A program made the translations under genes and the position numbers. A stretch of DNA of 64,000 nucleotides, from the IMG/VR virus record IMGVR_UViG_3300029425_000240; one strand, given 5' to 3'. Each line of letters begins with the position of its first letter. The first letter of the stretch is position 1. The stretch comes from a virus. A model generated the notes under the pieces. It was not told the DNA's origin. It saw nothing but the letters and a program-made list of their open reading frames with translations, and searched no databases. Shown here in pieces: positions 20,223 through 48,516 of this stretch.

Positions 20223-20254
20223 TTTCATTTTTCGAACGGAGTAAAAATGTTTTT

Positions 20255-20305: not shown

Positions 20306-20313
20306 CAACAATG

Positions 20314-23978: not shown

Positions 23979-23994
23979 TCCAATATGCAAAATA
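23979..23994 (-). promoter_or_regulatory. conserved upstream box (TTTTGCATATTGGA), coupling-protein operon
   Basis: ~30 nt upstream of ATG 23953. Confidence 0.5.
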
Positions 23995-24032: not shown

Positions 24033-24046
24033 TTTCGCATATTAAA
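24033..24046 (+). promoter_or_regulatory. conserved upstream box, plus orientation (TTTCGCATATTAAA)
   Basis: 45 nt upstream of plus-strand ATG 24088; orientation follows gene strand. Confidence 0.5.
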
Positions 24047-24842: not shown

Positions 24843-24886
24843 TTCCATACAGAAATTTTTCGCAAAAAACGACCGGTCTGTAAATT

Positions 24887-24901
24887 TTTCGGCATATTAA
24901 A
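24887..24901 (+). promoter_or_regulatory. conserved upstream box, plus orientation (TTCGGCATATTAAA) in front of tnpB
   Basis: 35 nt upstream of tnpB ATG 24933, after terminator 24806-24842. Confidence 0.5.
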
Positions 24902-24932
24902 TATGTAATGAAAAGGCAAGGAGGTGAGACGA

Positions 24933-26534
24933 ATGGCAAAGGCGAGAAGACGCAAAGATACGCAGTTTGAAACTTCTATGACGAAAAGTGTATTTCTGTA
25001 TGGCAGCCCGAATAAAGACAAATCTAAAATCATCCGGGATATGCAGAATGAATTTACAAAGATGGTAAATGGATATATCAGACTCCTTGCGGGTAATGAT
25101 AAATTTACACTTCAAATCGTAAAAAATGATAAGAAGAGCAGTGACATCCGCAAGTTTGAAAAATCCATCCGTCCGAAAAATGCAAATTCTGCATTCTCTC
25201 AGAATGCCTTTGACATGGCGGTGACCCATCTTTCTAACCGTATGGATAGCATCCGGCAGGATATGTATACAGAAGAACAGTCAGTCTTTACATCATCAAA
25301 AGTCCTGTTTGCAATGTCCATTGATTCCAAGACGAAGTCTGAGATGCTGAGCACTATGAAACAGATTGCGTCTAAAACAAAGAAAGACAAGGCTTTCTAT
25401 GAAGACTGTATCAGTATCCTGAATGAAATGTCAGACGACGAGTTTACATTTAAACAGGTGGAATTCATGGATATGTATATCAGTTTATCAATGGAATACC
25501 GTGTCCCAGAATTAAGACGGGCGCATATGCCTCTTGACAGCAGGCTGATGAAGATTGAAGTATCAACAGATACCGTCATGCCATATGTGATTAAGATAAG
25601 CGACGCTTTACATAAAAACGCAGAAAGAATCGTAATACCGATTAACACAAGCAGACATCCTGCCAATAAAATCAAATCACATAAAATGGCCGGTACGGTC
25701 ATGGCGTCAATTGATGAAAACGGAATCCTGCAGGTCGGATGGAGTTATGAGTCAAAAATGAAACAGCCAAAGACTTCAAATGTGGTAGGCGTTGATGTCG
25801 GTATCTCTGACACACTGCATACATCTGAAGATAAAGCAATCGGCAGCATGAAGCCGGTGATTGCTTTTTACCACGATACAGTGGAAAAGTCATTCGCTTC
25901 GCTGTCTGACATGAGAAATAAAAAACGCAGTATCAGCCATTACCTGCGAAGACATAAGGCCCTTCCGGAAGATGTGAGACGTTCTCTCATCAAAAAGATG
26001 GACCGGCTTGACCAGATGATTCAAAAGGCTGATGCCCCATACCGCAAGAAGCGCTGCTATTATGAAACACTTGACCATGAGATTAAATCAAGCATAGACA
26101 GATATATAGAATCAATCTCACATGATACCCTGACAGTCCTAGAAAAACTGGATATCAGGGAATTTAACAAAAGCCGTAAGTCTAACGGTATGATGTCAAC
26201 ATTTGCGAGAGGGAAGCTGCAGAAGAAGCTCATGGAGACTTTAAACTGGTATGGCTATGATTTCAAGGAAATTATACCGGATTACACCAGCCAGACATGT
26301 CCGGTATGCAGCCATCTTGAAAAAGACAACCGCAATGGCAAGTCTTTTAAATGCAAGTGCTGCGGATATGAAGCGGATGCGGATTATGTTGGAAGCCTGA
26401 ACATCAAGGCAAGAATCGACGACCAGGAAATACAGGAGATATGCGAAAAGTATAAGTATAAACATAATGAGTTACAGAAGAATCTTAAGATGATATACAA
26501 ATCACGTAACGACCAATACAAAGCAGCGGCCTGA
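24933..26534 (+). CDS. tnpB: TnpB-like RNA-guided endonuclease (IS605 OrfB / Cas12-ancestor family), RuvC triad intact
   Basis: RuvC-I VGVDVGISD, RuvC-II LTVLEKLD, Zn finger CPVCSH...CKCCG, RuvC-III ADADYVGSLNI; ATG 24933 after AAGGAGGTGAGACGA (track starts at GTG 24924); no adjacent tnpA. Confidence 0.8.
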   Translation: MAKARRRKDTQFETSMTKSVFLYGSPNKDKSKIIRDMQNEFTKMVNGYIRLLAGNDKFTLQIVKNDKKSSDIRKFEKSIRPKNANSAFSQNAFDMAVTHLSNRMDSIRQDMYTEEQSVFTSSKVLFAMSIDSKTKSEMLSTMKQIASKTKKDKAFYEDCISILNEMSDDEFTFKQVEFMDMYISLSMEYRVPELRRAHMPLDSRLMKIEVSTDTVMPYVIKISDALHKNAERIVIPINTSRHPANKIKSHKMAGTVMASIDENGILQVGWSYESKMKQPKTSNVVGVDVGISDTLHTSEDKAIGSMKPVIAFYHDTVEKSFASLSDMRNKKRSISHYLRRHKALPEDVRRSLIKKMDRLDQMIQKADAPYRKKRCYYETLDHEIKSSIDRYIESISHDTLTVLEKLDIREFNKSRKSNGMMSTFARGKLQKKLMETLNWYGYDFKEIIPDYTSQTCPVCSHLEKDNRNGKSFKCKCCGYEADADYVGSLNIKARIDDQEIQEICEKYKYKHNELQKNLKMIYKSRNDQYKAAA

Positions 26535-28090: not shown

Positions 28091-28106
28091 TTTAATATGC
28101 CAAATT
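28091..28106 (-). promoter_or_regulatory. conserved upstream box (TTTGGCATATTAAA), dnaN-like gene
   Basis: 58 nt upstream of ATG 28037. Confidence 0.5.
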
Positions 28107-29254: not shown

Positions 29255-30448
29255 TTATCTTATCAGAGCGCGCCCTAACTCCAACTCATAGCGACGCTTT
29301 CCGCCGTCATATCCGCTGCTTGTATGCTTTTTGTTTTTTATATTAAATATCCCTGTCTTTATTACATCTGAAGCCATAGCGATTGGCGTATCAGTGTTAA
29401 TAGATGACATGTAAGTTACAAACCTCTCTTCTGCTTTTTTTGGAACAAGTCCTTTTTGCAGCACGTTTTTAATGATATCATTTGCTGTAATATTTAGATT
29501 TAAATCTGCCGTATAACATACTTCGAATCGTTTAATGATGTTATCGGCAATCTCGTCTCCGGACATCTTAGTACGATGGTTAACTTCCATACTGTCAAGG
29601 ATATACAGCCTGTTATCAATCTTTACTGCAAAATCGACGCGCATGCTCTTTCTCCCAGATAATGTATCCTGGAACAAAATACATACCGGGATTCCGTCGG
29701 AACGCAACCGGGCAGGTTTGCATCTAAAAGTAAAGCTTAATGCTGGCTGTCTTTTTATCTGCTCTAGGTATGCAGACTCAAACAGCATACTCCTTCCGCA
29801 TTTATTATATAGACATCTAGCAATCTCTACCGCAGAAATCTGATTCTCACCATTCATAGATTTTAGCCCAACAAGCCGTGCATATACTTTTTTTCTGGCA
29901 CGGACCGGTTTATAATGAATACCGATAAGCTCATCTGTCCGCCTTAATCTTCCGGCCAGTGTTTTCAATGTGTCCGGTGATGAGAAATGATTTACCGTTA
30001 TAGGAGGTTCTTTTGTTTTTCCTTTGTTCATACAGTCATCAACAATATTCTTGCGGCTGTAATCGTTCAGCGTTCTGCTGTTTACTTCACGGCTTGGGAT
30101 ATAGCGTATTCCGTCAATCTCATAAAAGCACTCGGATTTATTGATGATATAGCACATTTTATCAGGCAATTGTTCAAAAATCGTCTCCTGTTTTCCAGTA
30201 CTTACGGATGTGACCAGCATTTCCAGCCCTCCTGTTTTTATTTCCTTTGCCTGATAGATTTTTGCTTTTTTAAAATCAATCTTTGTCGATTTTATTGCAG
30301 AAGAATAGTCTTCCCATAAATCTTTCAGGCCTTCCATATTAAATGTTCTCAAATTAATTTCCCCTTTCTTATTTGTTTTTGTTTCACATTTAATATGAAT
30401 GTTTTTCGTTTCATCAAAAAAGCAGCGGAGCTCATGCCGCTGCCTCAT
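29255..30448 (-). CDS. hypothetical protein (~397 aa), possibly replication-associated
   Basis: Track ORF begins at 30493 inside the SSB-like acidic-tail codons; first ATG after the SSB-like stop is 30448 (MRQRHELRCFFDE...), weak RBS; start uncertain. Confidence 0.45.
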   Translation of the reverse strand: MRQRHELRCFFDETKNIHIKCETKTNKKGEINLRTFNMEGLKDLWEDYSSAIKSTKIDFKKAKIYQAKEIKTGGLEMLVTSVSTGKQETIFEQLPDKMCYIINKSECFYEIDGIRYIPSREVNSRTLNDYSRKNIVDDCMNKGKTKEPPITVNHFSSPDTLKTLAGRLRRTDELIGIHYKPVRARKKVYARLVGLKSMNGENQISAVEIARCLYNKCGRSMLFESAYLEQIKRQPALSFTFRCKPARLRSDGIPVCILFQDTLSGRKSMRVDFAVKIDNRLYILDSMEVNHRTKMSGDEIADNIIKRFEVCYTADLNLNITANDIIKNVLQKGLVPKKAEERFVTYMSSINTDTPIAMASDVIKTGIFNIKNKKHTSSGYDGGKRRYELELGRALIR

Positions 30449-30452
30449 ATAG

Positions 30453-31307
30453 TTACTCTGAGTCTTCGTTCTCATCATCGTCTTCTTCGTCATCCGGAGC
30501 CAGGTTCGGAAGTCTAAGATATTCTGTATCGTATGAAAGGACTTCCAGTGTCCTTCCCCTTACGTCATACTCTTCGCCGCATACTCCACAGGTATACTGT
30601 TCTTTAAATTTTCTTGCCTGCAGGGCGCCATCTACAAATACGAGGGCACCTTTTTCAAGATTCTGGTAATCTTCAATAGATTTGTCACCATAAGAGTACA
30701 CCCACGGATAGTCTGTTCTTTCGTACATTTCATTTCCGCCCTTTGGACAATACTTACGGTTGATAGCCAGCTGGAATCTTGTATACGGCTTTCGTCCTCC
30801 CTGCAGCTCCCCGTGGATAGGAGAGTTTGTTAAATTACCAAGCACAAACACACGGTTTGCATCCTCTTCGTTTGCATGCAGATACTCGTACGCTGCCTGT
30901 TCGGTTTCAAACTTCTCCTCTACTCTTAGCGTAATTGGATATACAAAAATCTCATTACCGCCGGATTTTGGCTTTCCGTTTCTTACGCATGCATCAACTC
31001 TTCGGTTGACCGCATTGCAAAACGGACACTCTGCTTTTTTATCTTTTTCTCTTGTTGCTAAAAATCCTGTCATTTTTACAACATCCCATAACTGCAATGT
31101 ATCCATCACATCAAGGATTTCTTTTTCCTGTGTTCTGGCACAAAAAGAAACACTGTTTAATTGATAACCGCTTGTAGCCTTGTCGTACTCTCTTCCACTC
31201 ATAATCGTTGTAAGACCAACGATTCCGGCTCTTCCGTCAACTGTGTCTTTGAATTTTGGTTCCTTTCGTACCAGCGCAAGAACACTCACATAATTATGTC
31301 TTGCCAT
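30453..31307 (-). CDS. SSB-like protein with acidic C-terminal tail and two Cys-x2-Cys pairs
   Basis: N-terminal OB-fold-like pattern (NYVSVLALVRKEPKFKDTVDGRAGIVGLTTI), C-terminal DDEEDDDENEDSE tail as in SSBs; CPFC / CGVC motifs; GAGGAGG RBS. Confidence 0.45.
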   Translation of the reverse strand: MARHNYVSVLALVRKEPKFKDTVDGRAGIVGLTTIMSGREYDKATSGYQLNSVSFCARTQEKEILDVMDTLQLWDVVKMTGFLATREKDKKAECPFCNAVNRRVDACVRNGKPKSGGNEIFVYPITLRVEEKFETEQAAYEYLHANEEDANRVFVLGNLTNSPIHGELQGGRKPYTRFQLAINRKYCPKGGNEMYERTDYPWVYSYGDKSIEDYQNLEKGALVFVDGALQARKFKEQYTCGVCGEEYDVRGRTLEVLSYDTEYLRLPNLAPDDEEDDDENEDSE

Positions 31308-31377
31308 ATTTTTTCCTCCTCTTTTTTTTCTATAGTTTTCTTTCTTTTAGAGAGTCTTTTTTTTCTTTTCTCTATTC

Positions 31378-31393
31378 TCCAATATGCAAAATA
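31378..31393 (-). promoter_or_regulatory. conserved upstream box (TTTTGCATATTGGA), SSB-like operon
   Basis: 75 nt upstream of ATG 31307; overlaps T-run of terminator 31391-31432. Confidence 0.5.
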
Positions 31394-31432
31394 AAATAAA
31401 AAAGGTACATCGTAGCATTTCGCGATGTACCT
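31391..31432 (-). terminator. rho-independent terminator after SPFH gene
   Basis: GGTACATCG..CGATGTACC 9-bp stem plus T-run that merges into the next promoter box. Confidence 0.65.
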
Positions 31433-31465
31433 TTTTCTTATTTTTTTTGTCTATTGCAGCGCCTG

Positions 31466-32530
31466 TCAGTCAGTTTCGTCCTTATGCATATCATGGACCA
31501 TTCCCGCATTAGTCATCGCCGACTGCATACTTACTTTCGTCCTTGGTGTTTTCATGCAGGCATCCTCAGACACCGTCTTTTTGACGCATTTTTCTTTTCG
31601 GATTTTTTCCGCTTCGGCATTTGAGAATTCCTTTTTAGGTTCCTTTGTTGCTCCCCAAAAAGCCTCGCCGGCAATCGCTGCAGGCCCGACACCTTCTGCC
31701 AGATTATTTGGGATAAAGATTTTTGTAGCCCGGCCATCGGCCACATCCTTCATCGCTTCAATAGATTTTAAACGTAAAATATTTTCATTTACGCCTGACT
31801 CCGCAAGCCTTCTAAGTCCTTCTGCTTCTGCTTCATATACAAGCCTGATAGCCTCCGCCTGGCCTTTCGCAAGAGCAATTTTTGCGTCTCTCTCAGCTTC
31901 TGCGTCAAGCAGTTTCGCCTGCTTATCACCTTCTGCCCTGGATACTACAGATTCTTTATGTGCCTGTGCTTCCAATACGGTCTGGCGTCTTTCTCTTTCA
32001 GCCCTCATCTGCTTTGTCATGACCTCTTCAATCTCTTTCGGTGGCTTGATATTTTTGACCTCCACGCGTGATACCTTAATACCCCATTCATCAGTTGCTT
32101 CATCAAGCACATCCTGCATCTGGCGGTTGATATCTGCTCTCGAAGACAGTGTCTGGTCTAATTCCATGGCGCCAATAATACTTCTGAGAGTCGTGGCTGT
32201 CAAATTCTGTAAACCAGTGATAGGTTTCTCAATTCCATATGTATACAATTTTGGGTCGAAAACACTTGCATACACGACAGAATCGATACTAATTGTGACG
32301 TTATCTTTTGTGATAACATCCTGTGGCGGAAAATCGTACACCTGTTCCTTGATGGAGATTTTCTTTACAATCTTATCAATGACTGGAACTTTCACATGCA
32401 GGCCAGCCTCCCACGTTGTGCTGTATTTTCCAAGGCGCTCAATAATGTAGCATGCCTGCTGAGGGACGATACGTATCTGGTTCGCCAGGAATACAATGAT
32501 TATTACTAGAATAACTATAACAAAAAACAT
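31466..32530 (-). CDS. SPFH/band-7 (stomatin/prohibitin/HflK-C-like) membrane protein
   Basis: N-terminal TM, SPFH core, then Ala/Glu-rich coiled coil (AEAERDAKIALAKGQAEAIRL); AGGAGG RBS. Confidence 0.75.
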   Translation of the reverse strand: MFFVIVILVIIIVFLANQIRIVPQQACYIIERLGKYSTTWEAGLHVKVPVIDKIVKKISIKEQVYDFPPQDVITKDNVTISIDSVVYASVFDPKLYTYGIEKPITGLQNLTATTLRSIIGAMELDQTLSSRADINRQMQDVLDEATDEWGIKVSRVEVKNIKPPKEIEEVMTKQMRAERERRQTVLEAQAHKESVVSRAEGDKQAKLLDAEAERDAKIALAKGQAEAIRLVYEAEAEGLRRLAESGVNENILRLKSIEAMKDVADGRATKIFIPNNLAEGVGPAAIAGEAFWGATKEPKKEFSNAEAEKIRKEKCVKKTVSEDACMKTPRTKVSMQSAMTNAGMVHDMHKDETD

Positions 32531-32743
32531 ATTTTATCCTCCTGTGTGTTTTGTTGCCGATAACCGAAACAGGAATTTAAAGTGTTGATACAATGGCCAG
32601 TTGTCGCAAGCACGTTGTTTATGTCCCGGGTCTCTATGTACAATATGATAAATATTTGGAAGAACAGTGTATTTGTATATAAAAAACGTATAAAAAAAAA
32701 ACATGGAGGTCATCCTAATCGGCAAGCCGATTACTCTGACCTC

Positions 32744-32897
32744 GAGACAAGACATATACACTGCAAAATCGCGGAAGGTTCTATCCGCTCCGATACTGGA
32801 TATCCTATAAGTTTTCTTAAAATTCATATATATCGTGATATCCAGTATCTTCGCGTTCCAGATATATGAAGATTTTGCAGTGTACATGTCTTGTCTC
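32744..32897. repeat. 154-bp nested inverted repeat (27-bp outer arms, 13-bp perfect inner arms, AT-rich centre): candidate origin / oriT / operator
   Basis: Outer arms GAGACAAGACATATACACTGCAAAATC (32744-32770) and its complement at 32871-32897 (26/27); inner GATACTGGATATC (32792-32804) / GATATCCAGTATC (32837-32849); 32-bp AT-rich core. Confidence 0.7.
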
Positions 32898-34042
32898 AGC
32901 TTTTTTCTTTCGTTAGTGCGGGCGTGATTCATATATTCTAAAAGTTTTGACATGTTGAGTGTTATTACGATGCGTGATGTCGCTTTACCGGATAAATCAC
33001 ACCCTTCGTTAATGGGCTGCATTCCCAGTTGCCATCTCAACGTTACACCTTGCAAAAAGTAAATTTATATTTCGTAACCTTACGTTTTGAAAGGCGGCCT
33101 TTGGCCGCCATGCAGCCCAGAGGAGGAGGGAGCTGAGCAGATTGACATAGCTTCTCCTTGCGAAAAAGCGCAGACTCTCCCTATAATGGTATGCGTCTGC
33201 GCGGAAGAAGGATAACGCTATGCCATTCTGCTCAGATTTTATGTAGCCCGTCGGAATCGGTCGCTTCACATCATGACGGTCTTAGATAGCAGTCGCACTC
33301 ATCGAAAAACTTATCGAAGAGTTTATCGGAAAGCGCAACCCTGCAGTTCAAATCAGCCGTGCTGATTTTGGCGTAGTCTAAATTATACATTTCTTCTGTA
33401 CAATCTATGGCACATCCCACACGCCATGATGTTTCCATCATCCTACAGGTCCCGACAGCCCGCAAGCTGCCTGTGCATTTGTGCTTCACTTCCTCCTGTT
33501 GCGGTTTTATTACATCAACTGTATATACAATTTGTCTTTATTTCCGCGGATTCCGTTATCCACAAACTCCCCCGCGTCCTACTCTTAACCAGGTTTCCAC
33601 CCGTGCTTTCGCATCTTACGCATACAACTACGTATTAGGCAAAGGGCTTGCAACGCACTACACCCCCTTAGGTCATCGGATAGTCTAAGACCAAACTATT
33701 TTTTCCGCTCCCTGCTCGACTTTTGCCGCTCGGCAACACTTAACGTTGTTTTAGTAACCAGATTGGTCCTTGCTCTGCATTACTGCAGCATATGTCTCGT
33801 TCTCATCACGTTTTTTTTATTATTTTTGCTGATTTTGTCTTTCTTTTTTTATCTTTATGCAAAAAAAACAATAATTAACGTCCTCTTGGTAGAGGTGACA
33901 CCTCAATATTCAATTTGACCGCGTGATATTTCCACAAATTTCCTGCCTCCTTTTATTTCTTTTTTTTCGCTTCTTTGTACAATATCAGTAAGGTCCTTCA
34001 GGACTTTTTGTAAAGTTCCTGGCTGTCATCTGTATCATCAGA

Positions 34043-34058
34043 ATCAATATGCAGAATA
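34043..34058 (-). promoter_or_regulatory. conserved box (TTCTGCATATTGAT) inside the 2-kb noncoding region
   Basis: No annotated CDS downstream; AAAGGAGG-type RBS and a ~20-codon TTG/GTG mini-ORF follow ~75 nt later; may drive a leader or noncoding transcript. Confidence 0.35.
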
Positions 34059-34117
34059 ATTTGTGAACCGGACGGATTTTTTTATTTTTTTTAAAAATCA
34101 TCGACGGGAGGAAAGCC

Positions 34118-34560
34118 CTCGTCCAACTTTGATACCTCGCCGGCTTTGCCGGAGTCGGTACCAGAGCACGCATGATACCTTGTCGCATCGGCTCGTTACC
34201 AATTTGCGCAGCAAATGTCAAGCGAAACCGTAAGGCTGAGTGCAGAGAATAAATATGATACTTCGTGCTTCGCACTCAGTACCAGAATGAATATGATAAC
34301 TCAGGCTTAGCGCCTTCGTTACCAGAATAAATATGATGCCTCACCGGCCTTGCCGGATTCGGCACCAGAGCACGCATGATACCTCGCCTGCTTTACAGGA
34401 CTCGGCACCAGATTAAAAATGATAACTCAGGCTTAACGCCTTCGTTACCAGAATAAATATGATAACTCGCCGTTACCGGCTCGTTACCAAGCCTCGCAGA
34501 GGCTGACAAGCGAGCATAGCTCGCGGTATCATGAGCCTGTATGACAGGCTACTTATTTTT
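34118..34560. repeat. tandem hairpin array R3 (~10 units, period 39-45 bp)
   Basis: Unit = ~27-nt conserved block (C)GGTACCAGA-ATAAATATGATAACTC alternating with short 4-5-bp-stem hairpins (GCCGGCTTTGCCGG, GTGCTTCGCAC, AGGCTTAGCGCCT, CCGGCCTTGCCGG, CCTGCTTTACAGG, GCCGTTACCGGC); one unit carries a module A insertion. Confidence 0.75.
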
Positions 34561-35565
34561 TTTCGTTCTTTTCCATCCTTCCGACATGTCCATGTCATCG
34601 AACTCCTCATACATGTCGTCATCTTCATTTCCATCATCACCCATGACTGGTATGTAATTATCCTCCAATGCTTTTTCCTGTGCGATAATATAAGGGTACA
34701 ATTGTGCAAACTGTTTATTATTTTTTAGCTTTGTGGTAATGCGTGATATCTTACGTTTTACTTTTGGAATATTACTGCCTGGAATCTGTTCTGCAATCTC
34801 ACGATAACTGGAGTGCTTTTTACTTGAATTCTCAGGATTTAACAACAGTTCTAAGAGATTAAGCTCTTCGTCCGTCAATACATCCTTAAGGATTGTTTTT
34901 AAGTTTTCCTCTGATTCTGATTCAATAACAGATTCTTCCGGTCCTTTAATTGATGCTGTATAGTCTGCGCCCGCATCAATTAATGCTTCGTATGAGACGC
35001 TGTCTTTTTTTGACATTAAATCAAGAGTATTCTTTACGGTCGCTTCTGACAGCCCTGTCAGGCTCATGATTGTCTCAATGTCCTCTGCATTTAATCCATA
35101 TTGTTTGCAGTAATTCTGCGCGCCATTGATTTTTTTCATGGCATTCGCATAATATACAGAGGTTTTTCTGAAATTTTTGCTTGCATAATCGCTTACCACA
35201 TGGCGAATCCATGGCGCTATGAACGTAGTGATAGCACCTTTGTCAGGGTCGTAATTTTTTAATTCCGAAAAAATCTTAATCCACACATCTTGAACAATGT
35301 CTTCCTGGTGATATCTGTTCTGCATAAGTGTGCGATAGTTATCCCAAAGTGTTTTATAAACGTAATTTTTGATAAAATAGTATATCTGCGTAAATGCGTC
35401 CTGTACCGTTGCGTTGTCGCCTGCTTCAAGCGCCATATGGTATACTTTGACCAGTTTATTAATCTCTTGTGGGTCGTATTTTCCATTTGAACTGTAGACT
35501 ACCTTCTTTTCTTCTAATAGTTGAGTATTATCGGCAGCATTCATCTTTGTCACTGACGTGTCCAT
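34549..35565 (-). CDS. sigma-70 family RNA polymerase sigma factor (element-encoded), acidic C-terminal extension
   Basis: Region-2-like DIVQDVWIKIFSELKNYDPDKGAITTFIAPWIRHVVSDY, region-4 HTH SYREIAEQIPGSNIPKVKRKISRITTKL; ATG 35565 after AAGGAGGAG. Confidence 0.65.
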   Translation of the reverse strand: MDTSVTKMNAADNTQLLEEKKVVYSSNGKYDPQEINKLVKVYHMALEAGDNATVQDAFTQIYYFIKNYVYKTLWDNYRTLMQNRYHQEDIVQDVWIKIFSELKNYDPDKGAITTFIAPWIRHVVSDYASKNFRKTSVYYANAMKKINGAQNYCKQYGLNAEDIETIMSLTGLSEATVKNTLDLMSKKDSVSYEALIDAGADYTASIKGPEESVIESESEENLKTILKDVLTDEELNLLELLLNPENSSKKHSSYREIAEQIPGSNIPKVKRKISRITTKLKNNKQFAQLYPYIIAQEKALEDNYIPVMGDDGNEDDDMYEEFDDMDMSEGWKRTKKNK

Positions 35566-35824
35566 CAAAAAACTCCTCCTTGTTGATTTCTGGCTTTAAC
35601 ATCTTTTTTATAGTTTCACGATAGCTCCTCTCCGGCACCGATTTGATGTCACTCTTATCTATCTGACATAAACTTTCTCCCATCTTTTTTAATTCTTTAG
35701 TAGTTTCTTCTAATGGTTTATATTTGGAACTCCATTCTTTCCAGATAGTTTCAAAGTCATAACTTTCGTTCCCAGCAATATATTCTGCTAGATTTTTCAT
35801 TGCTGAATACATTGTTTTTCGCAT
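35528..35824 (-). CDS. hypothetical protein (98 aa), overlaps and is co-transcribed with the sigma factor gene
   Basis: ATG 35824 after AAAAGGAGG (track ORF starts at 36103 inside the previous gene); C-terminal DKDECCR; 38-nt overlap with the sigma gene. Confidence 0.45.
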   Translation of the reverse strand: MRKTMYSAMKNLAEYIAGNESYDFETIWKEWSSKYKPLEETTKELKKMGESLCQIDKSDIKSVPERSYRETIKKMLKPEINKEEFFDGHVSDKDECCR

Positions 35825-35860
35825 ATTCTTCGGCCTCCTTTTCAGGTCTTCGTGTTCTAT

Positions 35861-35876
35861 GTTAATATGCCGAAAA
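35861..35876 (-). promoter_or_regulatory. conserved upstream box (TTTCGGCATATTAAC), sigma-factor operon
   Basis: 41 nt upstream of ATG 35824, follows terminator 35895-35938. Confidence 0.5.
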
Positions 35877-35894
35877 CAATATGAAGGATTACGT

Positions 35895-35938
35895 TTTTTT
35901 TGCAAAAAAAAGAGCAGGAATATAAATCTCTGCTCTTC
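35895..35938 (-). terminator. rho-independent terminator after 35952-37028
   Basis: AGAGCAG..CTGCTCT stem followed by T8 on minus strand. Confidence 0.6.
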
Positions 35939-35951
35939 GTGTTGCTTAGAA

Positions 35952-37028
35952 TTATTCGATTGAATTATCGTCCTCGGTGTTATCAGTTTCAGCAGCATCA
36001 GAGCTGCTTGTTGAACTTTCCTGACTGTTAATTTGAACTTTTTTATAAATGCTGGTGACAACATCCTCCTCAAATAAAAGGTACTTTTTTCTTTCAATTT
36101 CATATTTCGAAAGTCCTTCTTTTTCCGATTTGTCTAGCTTTTCATACCTTTTTTCCAGGTCCGTTTTTGTCGCAACGCCATCATTCTTTATAACCGATGC
36201 GATAAAGAAAATTTTATAAAGACTATGCTTTGCCTGTTCATATGTTGCATTTGGGTCATCTTTCTGGATGACTTCCAGCTCTCTTTGGATAAGGCTTTCC
36301 GGAAGCTGAATGAATGTAGTCTGTTCCATCATCGTATCAATCAGTGAATTTATCGTATGTTCCCTTGCAATTTCTTTGGCCTCTCCGCTTGCATCGTTTT
36401 TTAATGCGGAACACATATCATGCACACTGTCGTATTCTGTATTGTTCTGAATGTAATCGTCGGTAACTGGATATGGCATATTCAAAATATCAGATATCGT
36501 TATGTCTACTGATGCATCTTCAACACCATTAAAATTTGTATCCGTTACCCTTACAGTGTCTCCTTTTTTAGCGTTATTCAATGCAGTATATACGTCGTCA
36601 CCGTATATCTTCGAGTTGTCGCTGTATGCCATTTTAAAATTACTTTTAACTTCTTTTACTTTGCCTTTTTGCGTTACTGTATAATCCACAATAAGAGTGA
36701 TATTATCGTTACTGTCTAATTGCACTGAACCTAATCGGTCTGCAGTTTTATCGAGCTGTTCATACATAACATCTTGCACATTATCATCTGTGACCTCAAT
36801 ATTATCCAAGTCTTCTGTGATGTCAATGTCTGAAAATGATTCTGGAAGCGAAACATATGATGTCATGTCAATCTCTGATAACAGTTCTGGACTTTTCACC
36901 TTTGAAACTGTTTCCTCTGTCTTTTGCGGCTCAAGCCCAGCATTCTGCCTGTTTATGTATAAACCGGCAGAGATAAAGCATGTGGCTCCAGCAAAAAAAC
37001 ATAAAAACACAACTATTTTTTTTACCAT
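35952..37028 (-). CDS. secreted hypothetical protein (358 aa)
   Basis: Signal peptide MVKKIVVFLCFFAGATCFISAG; GAAGGAGAG RBS; acidic C-terminus. Confidence 0.55.
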   Translation of the reverse strand: MVKKIVVFLCFFAGATCFISAGLYINRQNAGLEPQKTEETVSKVKSPELLSEIDMTSYVSLPESFSDIDITEDLDNIEVTDDNVQDVMYEQLDKTADRLGSVQLDSNDNITLIVDYTVTQKGKVKEVKSNFKMAYSDNSKIYGDDVYTALNNAKKGDTVRVTDTNFNGVEDASVDITISDILNMPYPVTDDYIQNNTEYDSVHDMCSALKNDASGEAKEIAREHTINSLIDTMMEQTTFIQLPESLIQRELEVIQKDDPNATYEQAKHSLYKIFFIASVIKNDGVATKTDLEKRYEKLDKSEKEGLSKYEIERKKYLLFEEDVVTSIYKKVQINSQESSTSSSDAAETDNTEDDNSIE

Positions 37029-37030
37029 TT

Positions 37031-38269
37031 TTATTGACTCTCCTTCTCTCTGTTTAATCTTTCGTTCTGTTTTGACGCTGCTTCAGGGTCAGCCATCACG
37101 ATATTACTGTTTGAAGCATTTTTTTGTATTGCAAGAAGATTACCGCAGTTTCCTGATATACTTAATTTGTCACCGTTTGTTGTTGCCCCCATCAGTACAC
37201 CTTCAAATGAATCCGAGTCTGAATTGATTTCCAACTTGCCATTTAAGGACTCGCAGCCATTGTAACAATCAGTAAAATTTATTACGGATTCTGGAATCGT
37301 TGCTCCCGTCAGCAATCCGGTACATCCTGCATATGCTGCGCTGATTTCTTCTATACTTTTCGGGAATTTTACCGCTTCTTTAATATTGATACAGTCTTTA
37401 TATGTTTCGTTCATGTAGATAACACTATCAGGTATTGTCGTTGCCTCCCTCAGGTTTGTGCACCCAGAATATAGTCCAGAGACGTTCGTCAGATTACTTG
37501 TTTTATCAAGACTGATTGGGCTTTGGAGTGAAATGCAATCGGCATATGTGTATTTCATTGATGACACATTGACCGGGATGATGTCTGCTTCTTTTAATGC
37601 AGAGCAGCCAGAGAATGCATAATCCATAATTTTTAAATTCGAGCACTGGAAATAATCAGGAGTCTTCTCTATTGCCGTACATCCTGCGAATGTGCTCTTC
37701 ATTGTCTTTAACGTTTTTGGCAAATTGTCGCAGTATACCAGATTTTCATTCCCCTCAAACCAGTTGTCCATATTCTCGATTTTTAGTGAATCGTCAATAT
37801 ACACATGGGAATATGTACTTGATGACCACGGAAACGTTGTGAAGTTTGTAATATCCCCCTTTCCTGTGAATTCCAAATCTCCATTTGAATAGCATGTCAC
37901 TTTTGCGCTTTTCTCATTTGGATATCCGATATTTTCTTCAAGTACCGGTTCTCTTGTGATGTCAACAATGACTGTTGCCGACTGTCCTTGAGCCTCAATA
38001 TTCACTTCACAAGATGCTCCGTTTTCTGCAGCAGTAGTTGTTTTTGAAGAAAAGTCATTTATCTGCACAACCTTACCCGCCTCAGTGGTTCCAGTCACTT
38101 TAAACATGTTTTTAGATAACGACCCTCCCGGTCCTACCTTTCCAACGAATTCAGCCTGCAGTCCGGTTATCTCAGGGTCTTTGTTCATTTCTTTTGATAT
38201 TTGTGTGTATCCAATCATCCCAACTGCAACAACGGCAACGGCGATGATTGCTTTTATTTTGTTGTCCAT
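37031..38269 (-). CDS. membrane-anchored BspA-type leucine-rich-repeat (LRR_5) surface protein
   Basis: Repeated Cys-containing ~22-aa units (FAGCTAIEKTP.., FSGCSALKEADI.., YSGCTNLREAT.., YAGCTGLLTGAT..); start set to MDNK ATG 38269 after AAGGAGAGG. Confidence 0.6.
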   Translation of the reverse strand: MDNKIKAIIAVAVVAVGMIGYTQISKEMNKDPEITGLQAEFVGKVGPGGSLSKNMFKVTGTTEAGKVVQINDFSSKTTTAAENGASCEVNIEAQGQSATVIVDITREPVLEENIGYPNEKSAKVTCYSNGDLEFTGKGDITNFTTFPWSSSTYSHVYIDDSLKIENMDNWFEGNENLVYCDNLPKTLKTMKSTFAGCTAIEKTPDYFQCSNLKIMDYAFSGCSALKEADIIPVNVSSMKYTYADCISLQSPISLDKTSNLTNVSGLYSGCTNLREATTIPDSVIYMNETYKDCINIKEAVKFPKSIEEISAAYAGCTGLLTGATIPESVINFTDCYNGCESLNGKLEINSDSDSFEGVLMGATTNGDKLSISGNCGNLLAIQKNASNSNIVMADPEAASKQNERLNREKESQ

Positions 38270-38282
38270 CTCCATCCTCTCC

Positions 38283-39179
38283 TTAGCCAATTTTGAAATC
38301 ATCTAAGTCGTCATCTTCAAAAGATTCACTTTCGATTTCCTGATTTCTTTCTTTTTTGATAATGTGCGAAGTTAAAACCGGAGCGCTTGACCCGCGGACG
38401 ACTTTTTGTCGGCCGGGGATTTCCTGTTCTCCATTAATAATCCGCGCTTCCCTCCTGTGGCCAGTTCTTAGACTCGGTGCCTCCTGTTTCTTATCAGTAT
38501 TAACGTTATCTAAAAGTTCCTGTGTGCTGTTATACTCTTCGTCTTCTTCCTCATCTTCTTCCTCGTCTTCTTCATACTCATCCTCTTCATTCGTCGGCAA
38601 TTTGTCAGCAAAACTTGATTCGTTATCGAACTCAGGGCGTGAATTTAAGCCTTCATGAAAAGCTGAAACCGCAGGACCTGGCTCACAGACGATATCATCG
38701 GCCGAGTCCCCTTCGCTCTTTGCTGATTTATTGTGACTCTCTCTTGCTTTTTCTCGTTCCGGTTTCTCTTTAACATCTTCATGAGCGTTATTTCTATTTC
38801 CAATGTTTAACGCCTTTTTTATCGCGTTATTATGCATCTTCATGATACTTGTATCACTGTCAACATTGATACCCTCCAATGCAGTCTCATAATCACCCTG
38901 GTCTTCTTTAAGGAAGTTAAGGGCATTGATAATCAGATTATACATATACTGATTTCCAGTATAAATATCAGCCAGCTGTTCAAGCGTGTCCTCAATGTTT
39001 CCAGTGTTTTCAAAACATTCCTGGAAATTTTCTGCATAATCGTCTGCAAGCAGTTTCTTATTTCCTGATGCTTCACTCTCTTCCTGTGAGCCCATTTTTG
39101 CCAATTTAACAAACAGAGCGAAACCAATCACGACGCAAGAAACACCGGCTCCGATTAAAATAATCACTGTATTGTCCAT
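38283..39179 (-). CDS. TM-anchored acidic low-complexity protein (298 aa); C-terminal region carries repeat module B in frame
   Basis: N-terminal TM (IILIGAGVSCVVIGFALFV), EEDEYEEDEEEDEEEDEEY run; AAAGGAGGAG RBS; repeat 38364-38418 inside the CDS. Confidence 0.5.
   Translation of the reverse strand: MDNTVIILIGAGVSCVVIGFALFVKLAKMGSQEESEASGNKKLLADDYAENFQECFENTGNIEDTLEQLADIYTGNQYMYNLIINALNFLKEDQGDYETALEGINVDSDTSIMKMHNNAIKKALNIGNRNNAHEDVKEKPEREKARESHNKSAKSEGDSADDIVCEPGPAVSAFHEGLNSRPEFDNESSFADKLPTNEEDEYEEDEEEDEEEDEEYNSTQELLDNVNTDKKQEAPSLRTGHRREARIINGEQEIPGRQKVVRGSSAPVLTSHIIKKERNQEIESESFEDDDLDDFKIG
38362..38420. repeat. repeat locus R4 (module B copy inside CDS 38283-39179)
   Basis: GTGCGAAGTTAAAACCGGAGCGCTTGACCCGCGGACGACTTTTTGTCGGCCGGGG; read in a different frame from the copy in 13673-14497. 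Confidence 0.65.
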
Positions 39180-39241
39180 TTTTCTACTCCTCCTTTATGC
39201 GTGCCCATCAGTAATGAGTAAATTACCGATGGGCTGTACTA

Positions 39242-41110
39242 TTATTTTTTGAAATTTTCAGACAATGATGCTACAATGTCGTCGACATCTTCAGCAGCGG
39301 CATTTTTCTTGAAATATGACCTTGCTGCAATCCTGTCATCTTTTGTACTGTAAAATTTGACATCATTGTACTTTGTGTTAAGTTTCCTCAGAATCTGGTC
39401 TTTTAGCGCTGCGCTTCTTGATACTTCAACGTAGTTTGTCTCTCCGATACGGATTCTAACTTCAAGAGCCCCGTCATTGTATACAACAAATTCTGCATTT
39501 GGGGCATGAAATTTTTTGATTTCAGCATCGGAATACTGCTCATAATAAGAAATCAGGTCCTCCGGTGTCAGGATATGCCCGATTTCGTCCAGCTGCTTCT
39601 GGATACTTTCCGCGCGTTCTTCTACTTTTTTAACTTCATCTGCTACCTGGCTTTTAACCATGTCTTCAATATTGCTTTCAATCTTTTTGATTTCACGGTC
39701 CTTCTTTCCAATGGAATCAGAGAGTTCTTTGATTTTTGATTCTTTTGTGACAATTTTTTCTGTTAATTTTTTCTCCAAGGCAATCTTCTGTCCTACCAGC
39801 TGCTGCACTTTCTGCTTCATTCTGAACACTTCTTCTTCCGCTTCGTTATCAGTTTTTCCCAGAGCATTCTGTCTATCCTGCAATGCAGCCAGCTGCTTTG
39901 CGAGCTGCTGCAGATTCAGTATATTTTTTGTATCCCTTTCCTCATATTCTTTGATTTTATTCTGCATCTCCTCTTCATGCTCTTTTACTTTCGCCTCTTC
40001 TGACTTGATTTTCTCCTGAAGTGCAGCCCTTTCTTCTTCCAATACAGCAACCTGTTTTTGTAGTTCTGCCTCTTTTTTCTGCATCTCTTTTTCTTTCTGT
40101 TCCATTTCATTTTCACGCTCAGCGACAGCCTTCTCTCGCTCAGATACCATTGCTGTTTGTTCTGACAAAATCTGCTGTACGTCTGACGCAAAGTCCGCGG
40201 AATCTTTCTTTTTTAGCGTTCTTTCATATTCCTTCATGCATGCAACTAGAGCCGTTCTGCATAAATCCAGACGCTCTTTTGTTTCATCCGGTGCGTATTT
40301 GTCTGGGCTTGAATACGTTCTTACTTTGAATACTTCATTGTCTGCGTCATAAGCAGCCATCAATTCCGGATAATTTGCATTGATGTAGGAAACATATATC
40401 GTGCCGGCATCATTATCTGCCGGAGTAGATACGGAAACCAGAATCTCCGCATCCAGAGGAAAAAAGATACAGTCTGTTGTAATTTTTTCTTTTTCGTCGG
40501 TGAGGATAACTTCATTTCCATTTAATGTCCCACCAATTTCAGCTGCTAAATCACGGAAAATTTTTTCCGCAAATTTGCGATGCTCTTCCTCATAGTCCTC
40601 TGTATCCTGCATCGTAGTGGATACCGCATGGTATGCATTATCCACGTGTACAAGATTTACGTTTTCTTCCGGGTTATAGTCTTCCTCTTTGGCCTCAACA
40701 TCTTTTTCAAGAAAGTTTACGCAGTCGTTCTCAAATGTCACCACAGCGTCCTGCATCGCATCAATGATTTCTTCTGTTGTTTTTACTGCTTCTTCTACTG
40801 TCTGGTATGAAAAAAACTTTGAAAACGCAAATACCTGGCCGCTTACATATACATTACATCCGGAATATTTTTCCATCATCTCCTGCTGAAACTCTTCTAC
40901 GGATTCTTCGGAAATCGGATACTTATATTCCTGCGTACCTTTGATTTTTACTGTATTTGGGGCACACTCAATCGCAATGCTTATACCTTTAATGCCTGTC
41001 TTTAATTCTGCATTAATCGTAATCTTGCTGTCCCCCTCTTCAATACTTGATGTGCCGGGAATATATGATTTGATTTCCTCTGCCATCCCAATTAAATAAT
41101 TTTCTGCCAT
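39242..41110 (-). CDS. long coiled-coil protein (622 aa)
   Basis: E/K/Q-rich heptad-like central region; GAAAGGAGAAAG RBS; conserved box 54 nt upstream. Confidence 0.55.
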   Translation of the reverse strand: MAENYLIGMAEEIKSYIPGTSSIEEGDSKITINAELKTGIKGISIAIECAPNTVKIKGTQEYKYPISEESVEEFQQEMMEKYSGCNVYVSGQVFAFSKFFSYQTVEEAVKTTEEIIDAMQDAVVTFENDCVNFLEKDVEAKEEDYNPEENVNLVHVDNAYHAVSTTMQDTEDYEEEHRKFAEKIFRDLAAEIGGTLNGNEVILTDEKEKITTDCIFFPLDAEILVSVSTPADNDAGTIYVSYINANYPELMAAYDADNEVFKVRTYSSPDKYAPDETKERLDLCRTALVACMKEYERTLKKKDSADFASDVQQILSEQTAMVSEREKAVAERENEMEQKEKEMQKKEAELQKQVAVLEEERAALQEKIKSEEAKVKEHEEEMQNKIKEYEERDTKNILNLQQLAKQLAALQDRQNALGKTDNEAEEEVFRMKQKVQQLVGQKIALEKKLTEKIVTKESKIKELSDSIGKKDREIKKIESNIEDMVKSQVADEVKKVEERAESIQKQLDEIGHILTPEDLISYYEQYSDAEIKKFHAPNAEFVVYNDGALEVRIRIGETNYVEVSRSAALKDQILRKLNTKYNDVKFYSTKDDRIAARSYFKKNAAAEDVDDIVASLSENFKK

Positions 41111-41159
41111 TATTTCTTTCTCCTTTCAAACTATCTAAATCAAAATTAATTTTCTCTAA

Positions 41160-41175
41160 GATAATATGCCAAATA
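41160..41175 (-). promoter_or_regulatory. conserved upstream box (TTTGGCATATTATC)
   Basis: 54 nt upstream of ATG 41110; after terminator 41215-41260. Confidence 0.5.
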
Positions 41176-41214
41176 ATTTCAAGAATCGTTGCTTTTTTGC
41201 GCATTTTTTTTACC

Positions 41215-41260
41215 GACAAAAAAAGCCCTCATCTGTGAATAAATGAAGGGCTTTTTCTAT
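41215..41260. terminator. bidirectional hairpin terminator
   Basis: AAGCCCTCAT..ATGAAGGGCTT stem flanked by A and T runs; separates surface-protein operon from coiled-coil operon. Confidence 0.55.
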
Positions 41261-41280
41261 CTATTTTTGCTAGTTTCCTA

Positions 41281-41380
41281 TCGGCTGAGCGCTTTCTGCT
41301 TGATACCTCGCCGTATCGGCTCGGCACCAGATTAAAATTGATAACTCTCCGTTCGACCCGGTACCAGATTAAAATTAATT
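41281..41380. repeat. repeat locus R5 (two module C units)
   Basis: GATACCTCGCCGTATCGGCTCGGCACCAGATTAAAATTGATAACTC...GGTACCAGATTAAAATTAA, ending on the stop codon of 41375-42235. Confidence 0.6.
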
Positions 41381-42235
41381 TTTCTTTTTCTTCTTATAAA
41401 TCAGCACTCCTGCGGCAGCACCAAGACAAACAACAATCAGCGCTCCGATTGCGATGATATTGTTCTCATCTCCTGTTTCTACAACATTATTCTGAACTTC
41501 CACGTTTCCTACTGCTGTATCAGCGGCTGCCTGTTCAGGCTGTGAATTACCTTCTGTTTCTGTCGCTTCAGGCTGTGCTGTATTGTCTTCCGGTTTTGCC
41601 TTTGGGGTAGCGGTTGGCTTCGGCGTTGCAGTCGGTTTTGGAGTTGCCGTTGGGGTTGGCGTTGCAACTTCGTTGACGGTACAGGTGTAACCTTCTACTG
41701 TCTTCATGTCTCCATCTGCACCAAGAACCGTGTAAGAGATATCGTAAGTTCCAGCCTCTTCATTGTCTACCTCATCGGTATTTAATGTTACGGAACTTAC
41801 ATAATCATCGAATGTACATCCGGATTCTGTAGGCAGTTCATCCCCTTTGTCAATCTCGATATCTTGCATGCCCTCTACATGTGATGCCAACTCAGGTTTT
41901 ACGGTGCATTTTACAGTTGCAGTCCTGTCTGTGCCATGGCTGTCTTTAAAAGTGTATTTAACATCATATTCACCCGGCTCGCTTGTATGTACACCACTGA
42001 TATCAGGTGTTATAGAATCAATATTGATATTTGATTCGGTACCTTTGAACTCTTCCTCTACGGATGGGAGGTCTTCTTTTTCGTATACCGTGATAGCCGG
42101 CAGGCTGGATATCGTTTTCGTCATATCCTGCTCATATTTTTTTTCTGCTACTTTTTTCTGGTATACAGTATAGCCCCCAGCGCCTCCAGCGGCTAAAACT
42201 GCAACAAGCACTACAGCAATTAATCCTTTTTTCAT
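41375..42235 (-). CDS. cell-surface protein with Thr/Pro linker and C-terminal sorting signal (VVETGDENN + TM + KKKKKN)
   Basis: Signal peptide; TPTPTATPKPTATPKPTATP linker; tripartite C-terminal sorting-signal architecture. Confidence 0.6.
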   Translation of the reverse strand: MKKGLIAVVLVAVLAAGGAGGYTVYQKKVAEKKYEQDMTKTISSLPAITVYEKEDLPSVEEEFKGTESNINIDSITPDISGVHTSEPGEYDVKYTFKDSHGTDRTATVKCTVKPELASHVEGMQDIEIDKGDELPTESGCTFDDYVSSVTLNTDEVDNEEAGTYDISYTVLGADGDMKTVEGYTCTVNEVATPTPTATPKPTATPKPTATPKAKPEDNTAQPEATETEGNSQPEQAAADTAVGNVEVQNNVVETGDENNIIAIGALIVVCLGAAAGVLIYKKKKKN

Positions 42236-46093: not shown

Positions 46094-46109
46094 ATTCAAT
46101 ATGCAAAAT
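46094..46109 (-). promoter_or_regulatory. conserved upstream box (TTTTGCATATTGAA) with GTGTTACA 17 nt further upstream
   Basis: ~355 nt upstream of ATG 45743 with repeat cluster 45812-46078 in between (long structured 5' UTR). Confidence 0.45.
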
Positions 46110-48424: not shown

Positions 48425-48516
48425 AAGGAGTCCTGCATATCGACATCTTTTATTTTAGCATGCCCGTCTAGACCGGGCCCTGCCCATCAGAGAGTCGTTA
48501 CAGGGTTGTTATTTTG

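Follow-up and report, generated by a model that had tools for sequence, protein, structure and literature searches.

A large conjugative element of a gut Firmicute encodes its own sigma-70-family factor, and we infer, with good support from sequence comparisons, that this factor reads a recurrent promoter-like motif, here called the box. The element was studied through a stretch of 64,000 nucleotides (nt), IMG/VR virus record IMGVR_UViG_3300029425_000240 (hereafter, the window). We consider it probable that this alternative sigma factor directs the host core RNA polymerase to box promoters, including the one ahead of its own operon, with a 98-residue protein encoded by an overlapping upstream open reading frame (ORF) acting as a modulator. 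An initial annotation, made from the letters alone, had put the factor forward as the dedicated regulator of the genes behind the box; the presence of a single sigma factor and a single motif, their co-inheritance and an invariant histidine in region 2 favour that proposal as well founded.

An element-encoded member of the sigma-70 family

The sigma gene occupies 34549–35565 of the minus strand, which carries every gene around the locus, and encodes 338 residues from an ATG at 35565. An alternative TTG at 35568 would give 339 residues (34549–35568); the ATG, preceded at a spacing of 9 nt by AGGAGG (35580–35575), is the more likely start.

The product is a member of the sigma-70 family, as first proposed, with profile searches and a structure model in agreement. 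It scored 41.9 bits against Pfam Sigma70_r2 (PF04542; cutoff 24; residues 78–132) and 52.4 against NCBIfam TIGR02937 (cutoff 42.9; residues 70–282 on profile positions 11–163 of 165), and matched the phage sigma factor family PHROG_351 over residues 51–283 with an E-value of 2.5e-16. Its best sequence match in the PDB was RpoH (8hkc; E 0.004), from region 2 into region 3. Of the two conserved regions named in the initial annotation, region 2 (35170–35334, minus strand; residues 78–132, with regions 2.3/2.4 reading TTFIAPWIRHVVSDY) stood above the Pfam cutoff. The region 4 helix-turn-helix (34717–34941, minus strand; residues 209–283; SYREIAEQIPGSNIPKVKRKISRITTKLK) is included in the TIGR02937 alignment, which runs from region 2 through this motif to position 163 of 165, but is below threshold by Pfam alone (Sigma70_r4_2, PF08281; 12.3 bits, cutoff 25.7).

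An AlphaFold2 model built from 35 homologues (mean predicted local distance difference test score (pLDDT) 72) has confident helical domains at about residues 30–135, 140–185 and 209–302 and disorder at residues 1–28, 187–208 and 304–338, corresponding to sigma2, a sigma3-like domain and sigma4 followed by a disordered acidic tail. The region 4 helices (209–229, 232–242, 254–260 and 266–281) have pLDDT values of 82–90. Foldseek aligned 260–320 columns of the model with full-length sigma factors of groups 1–3 (sigma-A, sigma-S, sigma-B and sigma-28), with low template modelling scores because the relative placement of the domains is unmodelled. The long acidic C-terminal extension noted at the outset was borne out: residues 284–338 (34552–34716, minus strand) comprise a conserved FAQLYPYIIAQEKALEDNYIPV segment, helical over 284–302, and then an acidic tail with pLDDT below 50 that holds a [DE]xYxxF motif. 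The extension is conserved in homologue alignments A1 and A3, and the final 50 residues of the protein have an isoelectric point of 4.05.

The suggestion of a sporulation-sigma subfamily did not hold up in the profile searches, in which the protein passed no named subfamily cutoff. Scores were 29.6 against the FliA/WhiG model TIGR02479 (cutoff 189.6), 18.8 against SigH TIGR02859 (cutoff 294.8; region 4 only) and 16–30 bits against equivalogs of the extracytoplasmic function (ECF) type (cutoffs 190–265), and no SigE/F/G/K model was among the best 25 of 43 NCBIfam matches. About 70 residues with a helical, sigma3-like structure separate sigma2 from sigma4, unlike the two-domain ECF layout, and the FliA profile alignment runs through region 3. 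On profiles and model we read the protein as a three-domain sigma factor of an apparently undescribed clade, with an N-terminal and a conserved C-terminal extension.

The box is a promoter-like motif

The box is a real promoter-like motif. Matches to the 12-mer TTyKGCATATTR with at most two mismatches numbered 36 in the window against 12.1 ± 3.4 expected, GCATATTR occurred 20 times (6.5 ± 2.4 expected), and a scan with a position weight matrix (PWM) returned 27 sites, compared with 4.4 in Markov simulations. The motif resolved in full to wwTTyK-G-CATATT-R-n-A, of which the TT, y and K positions lay outside the seed 12-mer and yet carry 1.3–1.6 bits each. Every strong PWM site is in gene orientation: 22 of the 27 sites are on the coding minus strand, and the strong ones on the plus strand lie ahead of that strand's two genes. 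At most sites CATATT ends 25–76 nt from a start codon supported by a Shine–Dalgarno sequence, with a few leaders of 124–354 nt, and most of the larger intergenic gaps were found by inspection to hold a box. A subset of boxes has a GCAAAAAAC tract 21–22 nt upstream; CAAAAA-N20–26-CATATT occurred six times in the window against 0.37 expected, and relatives have the same arrangement.

CATATT was also the only strongly enriched upstream motif in the window. An unbiased 7-mer enrichment covering −110 to −15 of Shine–Dalgarno-supported starts ranked GCATATT (13 versus 1.0 expected) and CATATTA (12 versus 1.07) highest, followed by pieces of the same promoter, and no second independent motif emerged from it. 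Neither TTGACA/TATAAT-type sites (32 versus 24.5 ± 4.5) nor TGnTATAAT with one mismatch (105 versus 93.6) were enriched in the window.

The operon made up of the small ORF and the sigma gene has a box of its own at 35863–35876 on the minus strand, with an exact match to the 12-mer (TTTTCGGCATATTA; PWM score 20.9). Its predicted −10 element, CATATT at 35869–35864, lies 39–40 nt before the ATG of the small ORF, and GCATATTA is kept at the same place in three relatives (loci L010, L014 and L018) in which the flanks have diverged. Upstream stands an A-tract (GCAAAAAAAAC; 35893–35903, minus strand) also seen in relatives, and then a terminator-like hairpin (35904–35935, minus strand; GAGCAG...CTGCTC followed by T8) that was read directly from the sequence, a consensus scan having missed it probably because of its 12-nt loop. 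The hairpin sits directly after the stop codon of the preceding gene and closes the upstream operon. A search upstream of the sigma operon for a sigma-A promoter feeding it found nothing convincing. The gene directly upstream (35952–37028, minus strand) encodes a 358-residue protein that is membrane-anchored at its N terminus and matched nothing in Pfam; its counterparts (329–335 residues) adjoin the small ORF in all relatives.

The box is inherited with the sigma factor

Several observations favour a link between the box and the sigma factor, which is the sole sigma among the ORFs scanned in the window. In L010, L014 and L018 the box is kept at orthologous sites, including the one before the small ORF, with synonymous sites saturated and flanks that cannot be aligned. 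The density of TTNNNCATATTR was 1.6–3.8 per 10 kb in all loci with orthologous sigma factors, across GC contents of 30.5%–44.9%, versus 0–1.1 per 10 kb in nine unrelated loci. CATATT also ranked first among upstream motifs in elements that carry orthologous sigma factors. In a locus from an Acetatifactor metagenome-assembled genome (MAG; L001) whose sigma factor is only 29% identical, TCATATT was the top upstream word (7 versus 0.5), and 8 of 13 upstream regions held TCTATCATATT(A/G) 25–45 nt before the start; CATATT was found in none of the 31 upstream regions of the unrelated control loci L005, L008 and L009. The words CATAATA, CATATTA and CATTATA occur upstream of genes in L020, where the sigma factor is still more distant. 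The small-ORF/sigma operon of L001 itself (around 9650–9730) has a canonical sigma-A extended −10 (TGTATAAT) in place of the box. With CATATT ahead of other genes, this is the arrangement expected of a cascade in which host sigma-A produces the element's sigma factor, which in turn reads the element's genes.

A candidate determinant of this specificity lies in region 2. In pairwise alignments to RpoH (8hkc) and E. coli sigma-70, His122 (codon at 35200–35202, minus strand) aligns with Gln437 of sigma-70 (APWIRHVVSDY versus TWWIRQAITRS). All 44 aligned family members have the histidine, as do 104 of the 149 distant representatives that were aligned; 13 of these 149 have glutamine. In E. coli sigma-70, the Q437H substitution compensates for a −10 hexamer whose T at −12 has been changed to C (PMC2613000). 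If CATATT is taken as the hexamer, its first base is a C at −12, and the A at −11 and T at −7 are retained, so that an invariant histidine at the Q437 position predicts the very C that defines the box. Given this correspondence, the C at −12 is most likely read by His122.

A small protein coupled to the sigma factor

The partner ORF (35528–35824, minus strand) encodes 98 residues behind a Shine–Dalgarno sequence AGGAGG at 35839–35834, and its end overlaps the sigma ATG by 38 nt in a different frame. The initial annotation had described this overlap, the box just upstream and co-transcription of the two genes; the coordinates proved correct. Its conservation marks the ORF as a real gene. There are 30 homologue clusters (one homologue being labelled "Lachnospiraceae bacterium"), copies taken from the loci extend down to 34% identity with W31, P37, L45, L52 and I60 invariant, and nonsynonymous divergence (pN) is 0.31–0.45 against a saturated synonymous divergence (pS) of 0.70–0.92, the sigma gene having a pN of 0.13–0.25 for comparison.

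The juxtaposition of the two genes is kept in relatives with overlaps of 0–38 nt (0 in L010, 35 in L014), and the Shine–Dalgarno sequence of the sigma gene is encoded by a conserved KPEINKEE near the C terminus of the small protein, beyond which the tail is variable. Because the overlap varies in this way, a programmed frameshift fusing the small ORF to sigma was rejected. Co-transcription is supported by the 38-nt overlap, by the tight juxtaposition in relatives and by the fact that neither a box nor a terminator lies between the genes. The translational coupling suggests that the 98-residue protein is a stoichiometric partner of the sigma factor. An AlphaFold2 model of it is a five-helix bundle (pLDDT 67), and searches of Pfam, NCBIfam, PHROG and fold collections matched it to no family or fold, anti-sigma factors included, in line with the earlier remark that it has no recognisable anti-sigma fold.

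It is possible, if doubtful, that the 98-residue protein is an anti-sigma factor that would hold the sigma factor inactive until a signal such as mating, entry into a recipient or DNA damage, making the pair a switch and not a constitutive driver. Such a role would suit the tight translational coupling in most relatives and the small, all-helical character of the protein, which several anti-sigma factors share, and in the sigB and sigF operons the anti-sigma gene likewise stands upstream of the sigma gene. A small upstream ORF also recurs in distant loci, abutting the sigma gene in L001, where the similarity is weak (26 columns; hhalign E 0.005), and overlapping it by 4 nt in L020. The 77-residue product in L020, however, has no detectable similarity to the 98-residue protein, which for its part matches no anti-sigma family and has neither a zinc-binding anti-sigma motif nor a membrane segment. 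The lineage of L015 and L016, moreover, keeps a sigma factor 62% identical to that of the window and lacks the small ORF.

A positive co-factor that the sigma factor needs for promoter use would account equally for the gene pairing and its coupling, and phages provide precedents for small proteins encoded next to sigma factors in SPO1 gp33 with gp34 and T4 gp33 with gp55. The 98-residue protein is nevertheless unlike known co-factors, and CATATT-type boxes persist in L015 and L016 despite the loss of the small ORF, which argues against an obligatory co-factor; we regard this role as unlikely.

Could a host sigma factor read the box?

We next weighed whether the box might instead be read by a host sigma factor, either sigma-A using it as a weak or extended −10 or one of sigma-G, sigma-K and sigma-E, with the element's factor controlling other targets or few. 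Several points weigh against assigning the box to the element's factor. The link between the two is a match between sequences only; the pairing of His122 with Gln437 comes from low-scoring alignments (E 0.004 and 0.03); and the control loci are from organisms other than the host, with no host chromosome among them. The box of the sigma operon is absent in L015 and L017, so autoregulation is not fixed in the family, and the loss of the small ORF in L015 and L016 indicates that this partner is not essential for sigma function. By keeping the A at −11 and T at −7 of the sigma-A hexamer TATAAT, CATATT could be read by a host sigma factor, and some boxes have T-G at −15/−14, for example TTTGGCATATT at 28100 and 41169. 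The CATATT core also resembles the −10 elements of host sporulation sigma factors. It fits the sigma-G consensus CATnnTA. Similar, too, are the −10 element of C. difficile sigma-K, CATATAAT, and the very similar one of sigma-E (PMC3789822).

Against these points, the C at −12 of the box is essentially invariant, unlike in sigma-A promoters, and is what a histidine at the Q437 position predicts. The box tracks the sigma factor over 30–45% GC and as far as a 29%-identical relative while being absent upstream of genes in the control loci; there is no second enriched motif for the element's factor to use; and replication, partition and transfer genes confined to sporulation would be odd. Because of this co-inheritance, the lack of an alternative motif and the implausibility of sporulation-restricted replication and transfer genes, we give a low probability to a host sigma factor as the reader of the box.

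A model for transcription of the element

In the model we favour, the sigma factor would bind host core RNA polymerase and bring it to the element's promoters, which would be of the extended −10 type, TTyK-G-CATATT-R, with the A-tract GCAAAAAAC about 21 nt upstream in a subset. Such promoters would head most transcription units in the 64 kb, driving sets of genes for replication (SSB and a DnaN-like protein), partition (a ParM-like protein), transfer (coupling protein and topoisomerase) and surface proteins, with the invariant His122 reading the C at the predicted −12 position. Since the sigma gene comes second in a two-gene operon with its own box, its expression would be self-reinforcing once started. 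The first sigma molecules might come from transcription that starts at the box at 41169 and runs on through the hairpin, or from weak use of TG-containing boxes by host sigma-A. The 98-residue protein would be made in fixed proportion to the sigma factor through translational coupling, and is most likely a sigma-binding modulator, whether anti-sigma or co-factor.

An elaboration in which the C-terminal extension (YPYIIAQEKALExNYIPV plus the [DE]xYxxF tail) and the small protein tether the sigma factor to the element's DNA-handling machinery, the candidates being the SSB and the DnaN-like clamp encoded a little way downstream, so that box promoters fire preferentially on newly transferred or replicating DNA, seems to us very improbable. 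Were it true, a conjugative plasmid would have its own equivalent of late transcription in phage T4 (gp55/gp33 with the gp45 clamp) and a host-independent, orthogonal transcription programme, which could explain the element's presence in backgrounds of 30–45% GC.

Relation to known systems

A sigma factor of a mobile element with its own set of promoters is a known kind of system; what is new here is an uncharacterised example with a coupled small protein and a conserved acidic extension. Functionally, the closest known analogue is SigN (ZpdN) of the Bacillus subtilis plasmid pBS32. This plasmid-encoded sigma-70-family factor falls outside the standard subfamilies and has a regulon essentially confined to the plasmid, including genes for replication and nucleotide metabolism; its gene has a promoter of its own type, giving positive feedback, and is primed by a LexA-repressed sigma-A promoter (PMC6751061). 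Shared with the window are the sigma gene on a mobile element and a motif of one type that heads many of the element's operons and the sigma gene itself, the reader of the box being inferred in our case. The two differ in that SigN promoters, for example TTTACGTTT...GATATAAT, are unlike the box, and in that neither a coupled small ORF nor an acidic C-terminal tail is noted for SigN in the parts of the paper covered (PMC6751061). A LexA-repressed sigma-A priming promoter like the one described there was not found in the window, and the window's element is conjugative. A tblastn search with the window's sigma factor also found no match at 1e-5 among 72,556 plasmids, a collection in which the presence of pBS32 is unconfirmed.

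The analogy with Tn916 is looser. In that conjugative element of Gram-positive bacteria, Orf7/Orf8 form a two-gene operon that switches on its own promoter and, through it, the genes for transfer (PMC5812530). The likeness is to a small, self-activating, two-gene regulatory operon; the Tn916 proteins are much smaller, and activation proceeds by read-through from one promoter and not from a box per operon. With group 3 sigma factors (sigma-28 FliA/WhiG with FlgM; sigma-B and sigma-F with upstream anti-sigma factors) the window's factor shares the three-domain layout, a partial FliA_WhiG profile alignment over regions 2–3, a long extended −10 and a small or upstream partner gene. It differs from them in its FliA/WhiG score, far under the cutoff as given above, in its promoter sequence and in having a 98-residue partner that is not FlgM-, RsbW- or SpoIIAB-like. 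Phage sigma factors (PHROG_351 and others) are likewise mobile-element factors that redirect the host polymerase, but the window's factor stands among genes of a conjugative kind (coupling protein, topoisomerase, sortase, ParM-like protein) and had no match in the phage genome collection. The E. coli Q437H variant has the same residue at the region 2.4 position facing base pair −12 and the same preference for C (PMC2613000); it is a laboratory mutant of a housekeeping sigma factor, whereas the histidine is natural and invariant in the family of the window's factor.

At the level of the whole element, a comparison can be made with Hodors, which a 2026 preprint describes as conjugative megaplasmids from gut Bacillota that exceed 300 kb and carry several sortases, ParM, VirD4 and TnpB (PMC12934698). 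They also have Rep_3, ParA/B/M, VirB4/VirD4, a MOBH-like relaxase plus helicase, Sec genes and giant surface proteins, and the words 'sigma' and 'promoter' occur nowhere in the text of that preprint (PMC12934698). In the window there are a sortase, a helicase, TnpB, a 2440-residue protein, a coupling protein of VirD4 type and a ParM-like protein; no Rep_3, Sec genes or protein of more than 7300 residues were seen within its 64 kb, and its GC content is 40% compared with 44.6–47.1% in Hodors. The element is possibly related to these megaplasmids.

Should the sigma factor indeed read the box, most genes of a large conjugative element in gut bacteria of Lachnospiraceae type, those for replication, partition, transfer and surface proteins included, would be transcribed by means of a sigma/promoter pair that the element itself supplies. 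This would explain coherent expression across hosts of very different base composition, and would single out one gene that, when induced or inhibited, should turn the entire element on or off. It would also offer a compact orthogonal pair (a CATATT −10 element and a histidine at the −12-reading position) for engineering difficult gut Firmicutes, and a natural counterpart of the classic sigma-70 Q437H/−12C specificity swap. Conceptually this would not be surprising. It does provide a concrete, testable point of control in large conjugative elements of the gut, a class of which little is understood.

Predicted box promoters across the window

The remaining boxes described here are on the minus strand except where marked. 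The ParM-like gene (1557–2717; ALP_N domain) is preceded by a box at 2793–2804 (PWM score 22.3), 76 nt from its start, and the gene at 12863–13279 by one at 13376–13387 (18.0). Boxes at 20209–20220 (22.5) and 23981–23992 (21.6) precede, respectively, a small ORF with the topoisomerase operon and the gene starting at 23953 with the type IV coupling protein operon. The DnaN-like gene has a box at 28093–28104 (21.3) and the SSB gene (30453–31307) one at 31380–31391 (21.6). A box with an A-tract at 41162–41173 (18.8) precedes 39242–41110, in an operon that ends just upstream of the sigma operon. Further on, boxes lie at 46097–46108 (21.7), before the gene for a 1142-residue protein and with a 354-nt leader; at 52867–52878 (19.9), before the SIR2 gene; at 55387–55398 (20.3), with an A-tract, before the FtsH-like gene; and at 56490–56501 (22.3), before 55539–56447. 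Small ORFs starting at 58967 and 60746 are preceded by boxes at 59009–59020 (20.2) and, with an A-tract, at 60779–60790 (15.4), and the gene at 61201–62301 by one at 62339–62350 (21.5).

Two boxes are on the plus strand. The first, at 24033–24044 (PWM score 14.7), precedes the gene at 24088–24768, and its orthologue precedes a reverse-oriented gene in L010 as well. The second, at 24888–24899, has the best score in the window (23.1) and, with a GCAAAAAAC tract, precedes the TnpB gene at 24924–26534. The box of this gene, which has a Cas12f-like TNB domain and stands on the opposite strand (region 24863–26534), is again TTTTCGGCATATTA; the gene for this transposon-type nuclease seems to have been wired into the element's promoter system.

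Two of the larger gaps have no box, those before 47101–48336 and before 56571–57095. They hold sigma-A-like extended −10 sequences, TGCTAAAAT, TGGTAAAAT and TGATATTAT, at 48452–48460, 57387–57395 and 57427–57435 respectively, all on the minus strand, and the genes behind them may be the few that are driven by the host sigma factor.

The conjugative element and the region beside the sigma gene

The window encodes a VirD4-type coupling protein, topoisomerase III, a RecD2-like helicase, a DnaN-like protein, SSB, the ParM-like actin (1557–2717) and a 2440-residue protein with a lysozyme domain, together with a sortase, a signal peptidase, surface proteins with immunoglobulin-like domains and leucine-rich repeats, an FtsH-like protease and SIR2. 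The gene order common to relatives runs from surface proteins through the 330-residue protein, small ORF, sigma and (Band_7) SSB to the coupling protein and topoisomerase. Orthologous sigma loci lie on two independently assembled, polished contigs of 379,969 and 382,248 bp (L012 and L013), and the elements of this family may be megaplasmids with a size of about 380 kb. L017, in contrast, has a Tn916-type integrase 5 kb downstream of its sigma gene.

Both the 2-kb noncoding region and the hairpin array that the initial annotation placed beside the sigma gene are present. The stretch at 32531–34548 has no long ORF and is an insertion relative to L017, where the Band_7 gene begins 14 nt after the sigma stop codon. 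Read from the sigma gene onwards, the stretch begins with the hairpin array, which is followed by a terminator-like hairpin and by a good box at 34045–34056 (minus strand; PWM score 19.7), downstream of which no Shine–Dalgarno-supported ORF was found; a non-coding RNA of about 1.4 kb could be transcribed from this box. From 33800 to 32600 the interior is GC-richer and structured-looking. The idea that the stretch hides a degraded SSB gene was rejected, since SSB is intact at 30453–31307 and the Band_7 gene at 31466–32530. Rfam gave no match at gathering thresholds over the whole window, and noise only at permissive thresholds over 32400–34700.

The array (34110–34530, minus strand) consists of at least eight hairpins and begins immediately downstream of the sigma stop codon, without an intervening terminator. 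In each hairpin an outer stem of 7 bp (GGUAAC/GUUAUC or GGUGCC/GGCAUC, which covary) is followed by a symmetric GA/GA internal loop and an inner stem of 4–5 bp; the z-score of the minimum free energy is −5.75. The hairpin seed TGGTRHCGA occurs 12 times in the window against 1.55 expected, 11 of these on the coding strand. Single copies near 13531, 29133 and 41321 are intergenic or lie in long leaders downstream of boxes, and variants occur near 46050 and 52000. The hairpins match no Rfam family; candidate roles are an RNA stabiliser, a protein-binding site or a single-stranded DNA structure of the transferred strand.

Distribution of the sigma family

The sigma factor has 48 homologue clusters at 48–99% identity, every one of them from a metagenome or MAG assembly and none bearing a protein name. 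Beyond these the family is large. Among 1.84 billion representatives, a profile search found 754 proteins at E ≤ 1e-3 and 282 at E ≤ 1e-10, the 754 being representatives at 50% identity, mostly of 290–430 residues and matched over nearly their full length. The histidine is present in about 70% of the best-scoring ones. The family is almost wholly without annotation; of ten proteins looked up, nine had no name and one was labelled a sigma-70-family sigma factor.

Megablast of 30000–42000 against the 72,556 plasmids and 50,697 phage records gave no match, nor did tblastn of the sigma factor against the same phage records, as against the plasmids; a catalogued plasmid or phage was thereby ruled out as the identity of the element. 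A scan of species-representative genomes with the single protein had no match, and an alignment-based scan of them found distant relatives only, at no more than 35% identity over short segments, among them Acetatifactor and Roseburia MAG contigs. Apart from these two names, the Lachnospiraceae label of one small-ORF homologue was the only taxonomic indication obtained.

Three of the relatives have features of their own. A sigma copy 79% identical to that of the window is encoded in IMGVR_UViG_3300029091_000057 (L022; 59.6 kb), which IMG/VR catalogues as viral, probably by misfiling a fragment of a conjugative element of this kind. A 245-residue protein, P0048, joins an ordinary ECF-like sigma2 and the first half of a sigma4 to a part, from SYREIAEQIPGSNIPKIKRK to the acidic tail, that is near-identical with the family of the window's factor, and is either a natural recombinant or an assembly chimera. 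In L020, the element with the distant sigma factor P0101, the DNA polymerase III alpha subunit is divided between two ORFs (14570–20872) with a LAGLIDADG endonuclease gene between them, and the same element carries two SSB genes.

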